This document shows, piece by piece, positions 56,519 through 60,795 of a stretch of DNA of 64,000 nt (positions are counted from its first letter, which is position 1; the number at the start of each line of letters is the position of its first letter). A program made the translations under genes and the position numbers. The stretch comes from an uncultured Bacteroidales bacterium (GTDB lineage Bacteria > Bacteroidota > Bacteroidia > Bacteroidales > VadinHA17): contig CAVWSZ010000008.1 of NCBI GenBank assembly GCA_963757935.1, positions 119,889-183,888 on the forward strand. Reading direction: 5' to 3'. The notes under the pieces are model-generated. The model did not search any database. It was given only the letters and a program-made list of their open reading frames with translations, and was not told where the DNA came from.

Positions 56519-56551
56519 AAAAATCCGGGCCGGCAGGTCCGGATTTTTTTA
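56519..56551. terminator. Bidirectional terminator between the convergent slyD and symporter genes
   Basis: aaaaatccgg-N10-ccggattttttt. Confidence 0.7.
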
Positions 56552-57784
56552 TACTTTCAGGGTCTCACCCTCAGATTTTGCAATTATTACAGCACAGCAT
56601 GTGTCACCGTAAACATTAATTGTTGTGCGGAACATGTCAAGGATCCTGTCGACAGCCAGGATCAGACCAATACCCTCAAGGGGAAGACCTACAGCCTTGA
56701 GTACTACAGTCATCATTACCAGTCCCGCCATGGGAATTCCTGCTGAACCTATCGCCGCAAGCAATGCAGTGAATATGACAATAATCTGCTGTCCGAATGT
56801 AAGATCGATGCCGTAAGCCTGTGCGATGAACATAACCGCCACACACTCGTACAGTGCGGTGCCGTTCATGTTTATTGTTGCGCCCAGGGGAAGGGTAAAA
56901 CTGGCAATCTTGTTCGATACACCGTCTTCAACCTGTACTGCCTCCATTGTAAGGGGAAGTGTTGCATTTGATGATGAAGTCGAAAAAGCAGTAAGAAGGG
57001 GAGTCGACATGTTTCTCATATGCTTGATCGGATTTGCCCTGCCAAGAAATTTCACGAATAGAGGAAGCGTGATAAGCCCGTGCACCATCAGTCCAAGAAG
57101 AACAGTAATGAAGTACAAACCCAGACGACTGATTATTTCACTTACCTGGTTTCCCATAAGTATCTGCTGTGCAATGACTTTGGCAGAAATGCTGAAAATG
57201 CCGAGCGGAGTGAATTTGATGACGAACATCGTGATCTTCATGATCACATCCAGCACTGCATTAAGCACATCCATCATCAGCAGGCGCGGCTTGTCATCCA
57301 CCTTCGTGATGAAATAACCGAAGATCACGGCAAAGAAGATTATTGAAAGCATATGTCCCTGAACCATCGAATCAAAAATGTTCGAAGGAACTATCTTAAT
57401 AAGGGTCTGTCCGAAACTTTCCGTGACAGCTGATATATTCTCCACAGGTACTTTGAATCCCAGGTCAGCACCCACGCCCGGTTTGATAAGCATTACAAAG
57501 AAAAAGCCTGTCACAATTGCCACCAGCGTGGAGAAAACATAGTAACCCATCGTCTTGGCACCAAGCCTGCCAAGATTGTCTGCAGTGCCCACACTTGCCA
57601 CCCCGGTAGAGATTGAGCAGAGGATCAGCGGGATGATGATCATGTTCAGACCCCGGAGAAAGACATCCCCGATCCAGTTGGTATATACAGTCCATTCAGG
57701 AAAGAGATACCCGAAGAAACCGCCCAGGACCAGGGCGATAAGAATCTGGTAAGGCAGGGCCAGGGTGAATTTTTTACCGGTCAT
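56549..57784 (-). CDS. Dicarboxylate/amino acid:cation symporter (DAACS/GltP family)
   Basis: 411-aa polytopic protein with TAFSTSSSNATLP, INMNGTALYE, GIPMAGLV, DRILDMFRTTINVYGD. Confidence 0.87.
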   Translation of the reverse strand: MTGKKFTLALPYQILIALVLGGFFGYLFPEWTVYTNWIGDVFLRGLNMIIIPLILCSISTGVASVGTADNLGRLGAKTMGYYVFSTLVAIVTGFFFVMLIKPGVGADLGFKVPVENISAVTESFGQTLIKIVPSNIFDSMVQGHMLSIIFFAVIFGYFITKVDDKPRLLMMDVLNAVLDVIMKITMFVIKFTPLGIFSISAKVIAQQILMGNQVSEIISRLGLYFITVLLGLMVHGLITLPLFVKFLGRANPIKHMRNMSTPLLTAFSTSSSNATLPLTMEAVQVEDGVSNKIASFTLPLGATINMNGTALYECVAVMFIAQAYGIDLTFGQQIIVIFTALLAAIGSAGIPMAGLVMMTVVLKAVGLPLEGIGLILAVDRILDMFRTTINVYGDTCCAVIIAKSEGETLKV

Positions 57785-58044
57785 AGGAACTCTTGTTATG
57801 CGTTAACTCAATATTTCGGAAACAGAATGCAATTTAACTGAATTATGAATCAGTACTGCGGGAAGATAATCAAAAGTAAGAAGCCCGAAAGATGTTTTAC
57901 ATTATGTGACGACAATCGGATATTCATAGCAAACGGGGAAGGAGAGGGAGAAAATTCAATTCTCAGGAGTTTCAGGAACAAACCCCGTGTAACAGGTAAA
58001 ATGAACTACCCTAAATTACAGTAAACAACAACTTTCAGCCCGAT

Positions 58045-58125
58045 TTACAATTGTAACCAACAAACAACAGTCTAAAACTGACTTATCTTAATACAAATGT
58101 AATTACTCAGAATATACACTTGTAA
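58045..58125. promoter_or_regulatory. Distal cluster of three TTACA-N2-TGTAA palindromes
   Basis: TTACAATTGTAA at 58045, aTACAAATGTAA at 58091 and aTACACTTGTAA at 58114. The last two are 23 bp apart. Confidence 0.5.
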
Positions 58126-58167
58126 ATAATACTTGATTTTGAATTTTAATATATTTAACTTACTATT

Positions 58168-58284
58168 TATCAGTGATATATATAAAACATTTCATGTTAT
58201 TACTGATATATGAGGTATTAGATAAGGTACCATGACATTAGATTTCATTATATTAATCATATAAATAACTATATATCAGTGATA
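58168..58284. promoter_or_regulatory. Two copies of the palindrome TATCAGTGATA, 106 bp apart
   Basis: Exact 11-mers at 58168..58178 and 58274..58284, inside the AT-rich island. Confidence 0.4.
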
Positions 58285-58396
58285 AAATACATCTAAAGTA
58301 AAGTAATACAATAGCTATTATGTGCCTTTTTATGGCGATATAAAAGGTATATACGTGATTTCTTTGCCGTATTATACTGCTATTCTGGCTTTATAA

Positions 58397-58455
58397 TTAC
58401 AAGTGTAAATAGCATTAAATTACATATGTAAATTATAATCTGATTACATTTGTAA
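58397..58455. promoter_or_regulatory. Proximal tripartite operator array of three TTACA-N2-TGTAA sites at 23/24-bp spacing, overlapping the -7 box of the XRE gene
   Basis: TTACAAGTGTAA at 58397, TTACATATGTAA at 58420 and TTACATTTGTAA at 58444. TACATTTG (58445..58452) matches TAnnTTTG, 18 nt before the ATG. Confidence 0.55.
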
Positions 58456-58469
58456 AAAGCATAATTGTC

Positions 58470-58913
58470 ATGAAAGAGAGAATTCTTGTGTTTTTGCAGA
58501 ATGAGAACAAGAGTTACGCCCAGTTTGCTGAGGAAATAGGAGTTCAGCCTTCGGGTATTTCTCATATTCTGTCCGGAAGGAATAACCCCAGTCTTGATTT
58601 TATTGTTAAAATGCTTCTGAAATACCCTTCACTGTCTGCTGACTGGCTTTTGTTCGGACGGGGCGCTATGCATAAATATGTTTCGCAGCCTACATTGTTC
58701 GACACAGAGCCGCAATTTGAGCCCGGTAAAGCTGTTTTGCCCCTTGAGGGGATAAATGTCACACCTGTCAGTCCGGATCTCCCTGAAGGGGTGGAAAATG
58801 CCCCTGATGCGAAGGAAATGGAATTGAAGGAGGTCAGCAACGGACATAAGAGACTTACCAGGGTAATGTTCTTTTATTCTGACAAATCTTTCAGTGAATA
58901 CCGGCCGGAATGA
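58470..58913 (+). CDS. XRE-family helix-turn-helix transcriptional regulator
   Basis: YAQFAEEIGVQPSGISHILSGRNNPSLDFIVKML...DWLLFGRG. Confidence 0.75.
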   Translation: MKERILVFLQNENKSYAQFAEEIGVQPSGISHILSGRNNPSLDFIVKMLLKYPSLSADWLLFGRGAMHKYVSQPTLFDTEPQFEPGKAVLPLEGINVTPVSPDLPEGVENAPDAKEMELKEVSNGHKRLTRVMFFYSDKSFSEYRPE

Positions 58914-58959
58914 TAAAATTCACTCATTTTAGCTAATTTTGCTGCCAAAGGAGAGCCTG

Positions 58960-59734
58960 ATGAAGAAGCGGATAGAAGACCTCACTGTAATAGAGAACAG
59001 GAAGCTTAACGAACAGTTTTTTGTCCTCACCGTCTCTTCCACCGTACCTCTTCCCGTCATTCTTCCAGGCCAGTTCGTTCAGGCACTGGTTAAAGACAGC
59101 CCTTCCACCTTCCTTCGCCGGCCGCTTTCAGTGCACGACGTTGATGAAACTTAAAAACAGCATCTCAATACTTGTTCAGATTGCTGGCAGCGGAACGGAG
59201 AGCCTCAGCAGGATGAAACCAGGAGATAGTCTTAACCTTGTTTACCCTCTTGGCAATTCATTTACCCTACCCTCACCTGGCGAGAAGGTTCTGCTTACCG
59301 GTGGTGGTTGCGGAATGGCGCCTTTGCTTTACCTGGGCCGAAAAATCAAAGAGTCAGGAATTGATCCGGTATTCGCCCTTGGCTTCCGCAACAGGGATAG
59401 GGTACTGGAGCATGAGGAATTCAAAAAGCTCGGAGAGGTACATCTCTCAACGGAGGACGGATCTTCCGGGCACCGGGGATTTGTGACAGATCTGCCTGTA
59501 TTCACTGATAATCACTGGGATAAAGTCTATTCCTGCGGCCCCGAACCGATGATGAAAGCCGTAGCTGCAAAGTGTTCAGCAAGAAATATTTTCTGTGAAG
59601 TATCTCTGGAGAACCTGATGGCATGCGGAATTGGGGTTTGCCTCTGCTGTGTTGTAGAGACTACCTCCGGCAATGTATGTTCCTGCACTGATGGTCCTGT
59701 ATTTAATACTCGTGTTTTAAAATGGCAGATCTGA
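58960..59734 (+). CDS. pyrK: Dihydroorotate dehydrogenase (B-type) electron-transfer subunit. +1 insertion near 59151; the main ORF is 59021..59734.
   Basis: PGQFV...LRRPLSVHD (FAD binding), [12 protein letters not shown], and the 2Fe-2S motif CGIGVCLCC...C. Confidence 0.85.
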
Positions 59735-60633: not shown

Positions 60634-60737
60634 TACTGTTCACACTTCCCGGAAAACCATTTTTTTTAAGTAAACGATCAGTTAAGTTTTACAGCTTGAT
60701 TTTTAAGATATTTGTTGGAAACCCGACTATTTTCCTT

Positions 60738-60745
60738 TAAATTTG
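60738..60745 (+). promoter_or_regulatory. -7 promoter box TAAATTTG for the Lrp/AsnC gene
   Basis: TAnnTTTG match about 40-50 nt upstream of the two candidate ATGs. Confidence 0.4.
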
Positions 60746-60795
60746 TAAAATTATAGCCGTAAAAGAAGACGATAACTAAAAAAATGAGAGACAAA

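Follow-up and report, generated by a model that had tools for sequence, protein, structure and literature searches.

The locus and its operator sites

In a 64-kb stretch of DNA from an uncultured Bacteroidales bacterium (contig CAVWSZ010000008.1; the whole stretch is referred to here as the window), a 685-bp non-coding gap lies between a divergently transcribed SDF/GltP-type transporter gene and a gene encoding a helix-turn-helix (HTH) protein of the XRE family; to the right, the HTH gene is followed by pyrK, pyrD and an AsnC/Lrp-family gene. The gap contains six TTACA-N2-TGTAA sites, arranged as a distal cluster (D1 to D3) and a proximal cluster (P1 to P3). Based on their sequence and distribution, we propose that these sites mark a multi-site control region of the HTH regulator itself, a non-phage protein found in about 80 Bacteroidales species. 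We retrieved 80 species-level genome loci (about 610 kb in all), 78 of which had usable upstream regions, and considered a site to be occupied when a match with at most one mismatch was present at the conserved offset. The main features, with occupancy in the 78 aligned loci, are the following:

58045..58056, no strand: distal operator D1, TTACAATTGTAA, exact; position class filled in 77/78 loci
58091..58102, no strand: distal operator D2, ATACAAATGTAA, one mismatch; position class filled in 66/78 loci
58114..58125, no strand: distal operator D3, ATACACTTGTAA, one mismatch; the weakest class, 36/78 loci
58126..58396, no strand: AT-rich spacer between the clusters, about 20-27% GC, of a length fixed per clade and with conserved DNA blocks
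58397..58408, no strand: proximal operator P1, TTACAAGTGTAA, exact; 78/78 loci, about -74 from the ATG
58420..58431, no strand: proximal operator P2, TTACATATGTAA, exact; 69/78 loci, about -51 from the ATG, and 24 bp from P3 in 68 of them
58444..58455, no strand: proximal operator P3, TTACATTTGTAA, exact; 77/78 loci, about -27 from the ATG
58445..58452, plus strand: predicted -7 promoter box TACATTTG, inside P3, matching the Bacteroidetes consensus TAnnTTTG
58470..58913, plus strand: gene for the 147-amino-acid XRE-family (HTH_3) protein, an open reading frame with a Pfam match

A search of the whole window found the exact motif TTACANNTGTAA four times (58045, 58397, 58420 and 58444), while 0.03 copies are expected, and none of 100 dinucleotide shuffles reached this number. 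Five further matches carry one mismatch; two of them, at 58091 and 58114, complete the array to a 3+3 layout, and the other three lie outside it. Measured from start to start, the proximal sites are 23 and 24 bp apart and the distal sites 46 and 23 bp apart. A first-order Markov model trained on the AT-rich core (58000-58469) expects 0.006 exact sites, where four were observed, and 0.13 sites with at most one mismatch, where six were observed; 0/5000 simulations reached the observed counts. Since a model of the AT-rich core itself expects far fewer sites, the enrichment of TTACANNTGTAA is not an effect of AT-richness, and the motif is commoner than the AT content predicts. The sites, coordinates, spacings and mismatches given by the first-pass annotation of this DNA, together with the overlap with the -7 box and the 46-nt gap that follows the HTH gene, were all confirmed on recount.

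Conservation of the sites and their linkage to the HTH gene

The same site arrangement precedes the 147-amino-acid HTH_3 gene in 78 species-level genomes, with P1, P2 and P3 at -74, -51 and -27 and with D1 to D3 located 320-400 bp upstream of P3. The 480 bp upstream of the HTH gene contain 443 sites with at most one mismatch across the loci. In the remaining ~570 kb of the loci, there are 61 one-mismatch sites, 47 of which belong to the asnC promoter, and no exact site. Apart from this asnC near-match, no further target of the motif was found in the 64-kb window or in the 610 kb of loci. The alignment columns of the operators are 90-99% conserved vs 30-50% for their flanks. As the first-pass annotation had supposed, the sites behave as genuine operators: five of the six positions are conserved in 66-78 of the 78 relatives.

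The gene order FKBP, SDF transporter, ~650 bp of non-coding DNA, HTH, pyrK, pyrD, asnC and SDR is fixed in 80 species. Because this synteny is conserved throughout, the HTH gene can be regarded as a vertically inherited core gene and not as a prophage gene.

A metagenome scan for two adjacent sites recovered 120 arrays, 34 of which have a strong HTH-family gene on the same contig. About 14 arrays accompany diverged HTH relatives (27-34% identity); all of these have retained the C-terminal IVIFYxDGTFxEY hairpin, and the majority a [Q/E]xxLF linker motif as well. The same two-cluster design, with a spacer of 350-400 bp and 16-24% GC, is present in Odoribacter (L216) and Culturomica massiliensis (LT594621.1, L218). 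The record MT836585, labelled "Bacteriophage sp.", is actually another such chromosomal-type locus. Across this set, the operator word and the ISHILSGRN stretch of the protein remain constant, while the neighbouring genes, the gene orientation and the spacer length vary. That the gene-site linkage survives these changes is the best available argument that the adjacent XRE protein is the likely binder of the sites.

The same DNA word is known from another repressor family, which raises the question of a binder acting in trans. The core sequence TACANNTGTA, contained in TTACAnnTGTAA, is the classical "cop box" and the operator of BlaI/MecI, where two or more copies usually precede the operon of the regulator itself (PMC7253601). 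The likeness thus extends from the palindromic core, which is identical, to the presence of several copies upstream of a regulator. Moreover, the metagenome arrays of the same 12-mer that lack an XRE gene include BlaI-BlaR1 operons (Penicillinase_R, Peptidase_M56). In four of these contigs (L104, 3341-3451; L178; L200; L211), the 12-mer forms a conserved three-site pattern (x, x+25, x+99) upstream of genes for BlaI (Penicillinase_R) and BlaR1 (M56 plus transpeptidase); an unrelated repressor family therefore uses the same DNA word. Nevertheless, it is very unlikely that a BlaI/MecI/CopY-family winged-helix repressor, and not the adjacent XRE protein, binds the sites described here. Neither tblastn nor synteny revealed a Penicillinase_R gene in the window or adjoining any of the 80 loci, the arrays follow the XRE gene through changes in neighbours, orientation and phylogenetic distance, and the XRE domain is nearly invariant, as is the motif. 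The regulator next to the sites belongs to HTH_3 (XRE) and lacks the winged helix of Penicillinase_R; neither a BlaR1/M56 sensor nor a copper ATPase accompanies it, the six sites form two clusters, and genuine BlaI-BlaR1 arrays have a different appearance. The shared core appears to reflect convergence on the same DNA word; the motif alone is insufficient for assigning TACANNTGTA-type sites to BlaI/CopY proteins.

Overlap of P3 with the predicted promoter

Bacteroidota promoters differ from the E. coli model, with TAnnTTTG as the -7 consensus. The box that fits this consensus inside P3 is separated from the ATG of the HTH gene (58470) by 17 nt. In 77/77 loci the P3 spacer is TT, which creates TACATTTG, so that the site is always TTACATTTGTAA; the other five sites have a variable spacer in the 78-locus set, with "nA" favoured. 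Read on the opposite strand, P3 fits the asymmetric consensus aaTTACAnATGTAAaT and can therefore be described as an inverted copy of the operator that doubles as a -7 box. On the plus strand, TAnnTTTG shows three peaks across the loci, namely at P3 (81 occurrences in the -50 bin of the 80 loci), just past the HTH stop codon (pyrK) and upstream of asnC. Additionally, P2 occupies the position expected for the -33 promoter element.

Because a protein bound to P2 or P3 must compete with RNA polymerase, this overlap points to autorepression, in agreement with the first-pass annotation. We also considered that the repeats might simply be multiple -7 boxes; this explanation was ruled out, as only P3 always fits TAnnTTTG.

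The HTH protein

The protein matches Pfam HTH_3 over residues 11-60 with 34.4 bits (cutoff, 23). The AlphaFold model comprises an XRE domain (residues 1-62) of five helices (2-12, 16-23, 27-34, 42-51 and 57-62; pLDDT 73-91), a disordered linker (82-124) and a C-terminal beta-hairpin (133-144) with a pLDDT of ~60. In Foldseek searches, the best structural relatives by TM-score normalised to the target were 434 Cro (0.81), P22 c2 (0.77) and the N-terminal domain of SinR (0.74), with HigA and DdrO as further matches. The family comprises 2747 clusters at 90% identity (E<=1e-3), or 267 clusters at 50% identity (E<=1e-30), and its only name in the sources is "helix-turn-helix transcriptional regulator". 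We found no description of the family or of its motif in Bacteroidota in the literature, and a search of the PDB sequences with the family profile gave no match.

Residues 1-77 are nearly invariant, including the stretch ISHILSGRNNPS and the pentapeptide QPTLF, while residues ~80-125 are variable and are followed by the conserved C-terminal stretch KRLxRVLFFYSDKTFTEYRPS. ISHILSGRN and its neighbours are invariant within the family and similar in distant relatives. QPTLF (residues 73-77; window 58686-58700) is likewise invariant; it lies at the start of the linker and is represented by [Q/E]xxLF in the relatives of 27-34% identity. The beta-clamp-binding pentapeptide is QxxLF, which QPTLF resembles; a role of QPTLF as a degron or in docking a partner is equally conceivable. 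Only HTH families matched the protein in the Pfam and NCBIfam scans, with no S24, CI-type C-terminal or ligand-binding domain, and its NCBIfam matches to HigA and RstR were far below the cutoffs.

From the linkage of gene and sites, we infer that the HTH_3 protein binds the palindromic operator as a dimer. The predicted structure further suggests that the C-terminal hairpin mediates dimer or dimer-of-dimer contacts, and that the flexible linker would let the hairpin bridge neighbouring sites and reach the distal cluster.

The distal cluster, the spacer and looping

The spacer and the DNA to the left of the distal cluster contain additional conserved elements, listed here with the transporter gene that bounds them; the spacer blocks are defined by the column conservation of the 78-locus alignment:

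56549-57784, minus strand: SDF/GltP-type transporter gene, divergent, left of the sites
57862-57876, minus strand: element E2, CTTTTGATTATCTTC, conserved only where a gltP-type gene lies on the minus strand (34 loci)
57910..57963, minus strand: element E1, two conserved boxes (57963-57950 and 57925-57910), about 93 nt left of D1
58162-58180, no strand: spacer block of the ACTATTTATCAGT..TTA type
58238-58242, no strand: spacer block TTAGA
58268-58280, no strand: spacer block ACT....ATCAGT
58292-58308, no strand: spacer block TCTAAA[G/C]T.AAGTA.TA

The distances from the distal sites to P3 are 399, 353 and 330 bp in the clade of the window, and 389, 343 and 320 bp in a sister clade, where all three sites have moved by exactly 10 bp; a third clade has sites at 422, 397, 362 and 328 bp. 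D1-P3 distances of 37.0, 38.0 and 37.8 helical turns occur. The 10-bp quantum and these turn numbers are compatible with the keeping of helical phase, with few independent events behind them. Looping between the clusters is plausible because the two-cluster geometry is conserved.

The spacer blocks are position-specific and occur nowhere else in the loci. A direct repeat, ACTATwTATCAGTGATA, is present at 58162-58180 and 58268-58280, about 105 bp apart, and in many loci it reads TATCAAnnnnTTA. This form fits the E. coli IHF consensus WATCAAnnnnTTR and is a possible candidate bending site. RNAalifold predicted a consensus of 0 pairs for the spacer, and an Rfam scan of 57000-59500 on both strands (E<=1) gave 0 matches. 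An invertible promoter between the palindromic clusters was ruled out by the inner blocks, which have the same orientation in all 78 genomes.

The distal sites can also be viewed as operators in their own right. According to this alternative, the clusters are the operator sets of two outward-facing promoters, as in lambda OL/PL and OR/PR: P3 would serve the HTH gene, the distal sites would serve a leftward transcript (a gltP-type mRNA with a long leader, or an RNA across E1), and looping would be secondary. On the minus strand, D2 in the window reads TACATTTG, a perfect Bacteroidetes -7 box pointing to the left, as does D1 or D0 in many loci, and TAnnTTTG occurs in the distal cluster in 52/77 loci on the minus strand vs 22/77 on the plus strand. 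Between the distal cluster and the gltP start there is no other conserved minus-strand -7 box, and the conserved elements E1 and E2 lie downstream of the distal cluster at a fixed distance. Yet such a box is present in only about two thirds of the loci, with the same frequency in loci with and without a minus-strand gene on the left (32/48 vs 20/29). The preference for an AA spacer is shared by P1 and P2, which fits the general asymmetric consensus TTACAnATGTAA, and E1 shows neither RNA structure nor covariation. We therefore regard the two-promoter arrangement as possible but doubtful; for the proximal half it is compatible with the autorepression model detailed below.

The composition of the region raises a further alternative, namely a chromosome-level element such as a replication origin, a terminus or a unique anchoring site, in which an AT-rich segment flanked by iteron-like sites would be served by a dedicated protein with a clamp-binding-like QxxLF motif. 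Positions 58000-58450 are the lowest-GC stretch of the window (20-27% vs ~47% overall), sites recur at a 23-bp interval to either side of the AT-rich segment, the ~650-bp architecture including E1 is rigid, and the QPTLF motif is kept as described above. Against this, the GC skew stays positive from 48 to 64 kb, with no sign change at 58 kb, and the 78 upstream regions contain no exact DnaA box (TTATCCACA), with scattered and non-conserved one-mismatch matches. Provided that dnaA marks the start of the numbering, the position of the locus in the complete Culturomica genome (0.88 of 4.12 Mb) speaks for neither an origin nor a terminus, and the -7 box inside P3 points to transcription control. 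An oriC or a terminus was ruled out by the absence of a skew switch and of conserved DnaA boxes, and we consider a chromosome-level role of any kind to be extremely improbable.

A more speculative reading joins several of these features. The ~650-bp region (E1, distal cluster, spacer and proximal cluster) might form a single-copy nucleoprotein switch with rigid spacing across Bacteroidales. Its binder would have a role beyond repressing its own gene: through QPTLF as a beta-clamp-like peptide, it could link the expression of the metabolic genes nearby (gltP-type transporter, pyrKD, asnC/Lrp) to replication-fork passage or to some other partner protein. Alternatively, the region could act as a bistable epigenetic switch. 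We judge this reading to be improbable.

Proposed model of autorepression

The region is probably an autorepression module of an XRE-family regulator that is widespread in Bacteroidales: most likely, the adjacent XRE-type protein represses its own gene cooperatively, and looping may contribute. In this model, a chromosomal XRE/Cro-type regulator that is inherited vertically would have the 410-bp array as its cis-regulatory module. Dimers of the 147-amino-acid protein would occupy the 12-bp palindromes, with P1 to P3 covering the predicted promoter of its own gene: the putative -7 box is in P3, the -33 position coincides with P2, and P1 is just upstream. When the proximal operators are filled, transcription would be turned off, resulting in homeostatic autorepression. 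Dimers spaced 23-24 bp apart would probably bind cooperatively, and the likely contact is the C-terminal beta-hairpin, carried on a flexible linker of ~50 residues. The second cluster, 283-400 bp upstream, would most likely raise occupancy through a loop of the TA-rich spacer; it may also cover a leftward promoter in about two thirds of the species.

Several observations weigh against this model. The unrelated BlaI/MecI/CopY winged-helix repressors also use the TACANNTGTA core as their operator, which makes another binder conceivable. The centres of the half-sites are only 7 bp apart, a short distance for a classical HTH dimer, and AlphaFold models the C-terminal hairpin with a confidence of only ~60. 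Regarding the distal cluster, D3 is filled in fewer than half of the loci (36/78), the distal-proximal distances of the Odoribacteraceae are not integral numbers of helical turns, and a curvature check found no phased A-tracts in the spacer; because of these two last points, looping is not specifically supported. Finally, the conserved spacer blocks and E1 are not explained by the model.

To our knowledge, very few transcription factor-operator pairs have been defined in Bacteroidota. The locus offers a testable pair that consists of a small uncharacterised family and a precise 12-bp operator, with a design in which an operator coincides with the -7 box. The presence of the regulator in the cultured gut genera Odoribacter, Butyricimonas and Culturomica makes it directly testable, and it might provide a compact repressor/operator part for Bacteroidales genetics.

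Comparison with phage and chromosomal repressors

The first-pass annotation had described a phage-operator-like architecture. Its geometric part is sustained, as three proximal and three distal sites form a lambda-like arrangement; a phage origin or context is not, given the housekeeping synteny in 80 species and the absence of an S24 or CI-type C-terminal domain. In lambda, the OR operators are spaced by 23/24 bp, the tripartite OR and OL are bound cooperatively with OL-OR looping, and cro is transcribed from PR, which it represses. Likewise, three adjacent palindromic operators with 23/24-bp spacing lie here over the promoter of a gene with a Cro/CI-type fold, a second three-site cluster is present at a distance, and the HTH gene is transcribed from the promoter that it is predicted to repress, as is cro from PR. 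The differences from lambda are that the clusters lie 283-400 bp apart vs 2.4 kb, that the operators span 12 bp vs 17 bp, and that the HTH gene is a vertically inherited core gene of ~80 or more species, which lies outside any prophage context and whose product lacks the S24 or oligomerisation C-terminal domain of CI. A lambda-like multi-site geometry is thus reproduced in a housekeeping context.

A link to phages was also sought among viral sequences and was rejected. Fifteen IMG/VR contigs (L081-L095) contain two to six TTACANNTGTAA sites at 22-25 bp spacing (e.g., L087, L088, L089 and L094), with no HTH-family homologue nearby, and the homologue in a Bacteroides Mu-like phage, which is without such sites, is related in the HTH domain only (40% identity).

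Coliphage 186 provides another phage parallel. Its CI repressor has flanking FL/FR sites ~300 bp from pR and a large C-terminal domain that forms a wheel. The likeness lies in three operators at the promoter with auxiliary sites a few hundred bp away; the difference is that 186 is a phage system with a wheel-forming CI C-terminal domain, and no evidence of such an oligomer was found for the protein described here.

Among chromosomal regulators, SinR-type XRE autoregulators and HigA-type antitoxins share with this protein a five-helix XRE domain, a small size, a C-terminal multimerisation element (here predicted) and sites in their own promoter. Unlike these, the HTH gene has no adjoining partner gene (SinI, a toxin or restriction-modification genes): its neighbours are the SDF transporter gene, pyrK, pyrD and asnC, with no toxin or restriction-modification gene adjacent. 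Its C-terminus is a beta-hairpin of ~12 residues past a disordered linker, in place of helical hooks, and its operator array is far more elaborate.

The non-canonical LexA of Bacteroidetes combines a CI-like HTH with an S24 peptidase and binds GGA-N5-TCC or CTAA-N5-TTAG (PMC8565304). Both cases, the present one by inference, would be examples from one phylum of a phage-repressor-like multi-helical HTH that was recruited to the chromosome as an autoregulated repressor. An identity with this LexA was ruled out, as the HTH protein has no S24 domain and a different motif and no SOS genes lie nearby.

Neighbouring genes and flanking elements

The 46-nt gap between the HTH stop codon and the pyrK ATG (58960) contains one predicted promoter element:

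58934..58941, plus strand: pyrK's own -7 box, TAATTTTG, 20 nt past the HTH stop codon

In the loci, TAnnTTTG occurs within ~80 nt past the HTH stop codon in 72/77 cases and within 330 nt in 75/77; the distance is exactly 20 nt in 37 loci and in the window. No operator past the HTH stop codon was found in the scan of the loci. In Odoribacteraceae-type loci, including L216 and LT594621.1, pyrD-pyrK are convergent with the HTH gene. The suggestion of the first-pass annotation that the array may control pyrK-pyrD is therefore not upheld, in view of the conserved -7 box of pyrK itself, the lack of an operator there and the convergent orientation in these loci. As no terminator is predicted, read-through from P3 into pyrK is possible in the clade of the window.

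In the window, a 1-nt insertion at ~59145-59155 relative to L001 breaks pyrK into two frames (58939-59154 and 59021-59734); an assembly error is a possible cause. Indels and a truncated HTH product are also seen in L003, a related long-read assembly.

The near-match in the asnC promoter is the 12-mer TTAAATTTGTAA (60737-60748), which differs from the operator by one mismatch and includes the -7 box TAAATTTG. The 12-mer is invariant, the 47 one-mismatch sites cluster directly upstream of asnC across the 80 loci, and it never reads TTACA. It is probably just a strong promoter; weak cross-binding is conceivable.

A constant 38 nt separates the two boxes of E1, AGAATTGAATwTTT and GAATwTTnAATTCTGG, which are single-copy in the window. 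E1 is retained even where the minus-strand gltP gene is absent or replaced, and it may belong to the same control region as the sites. An apparent inverted repeat suggested an RNA hairpin, which was rejected: RNAalifold gave 0 pairs, and the pair tally showed uncompensated changes. E1 is probably protein-binding DNA. E1 and the spacer blocks alike have the appearance of protein-binding DNA, perhaps for nucleoid-bending proteins or for a second regulator, e.g., the neighbouring and very conserved AsnC/Lrp. E2, which follows the presence of the gltP-type gene, is probably a promoter or leader element of that gene. In L074 and L058, where the transporter gene is replaced, short tandem repeats with GAGGGACT and AGAGACTA units come immediately after E1.

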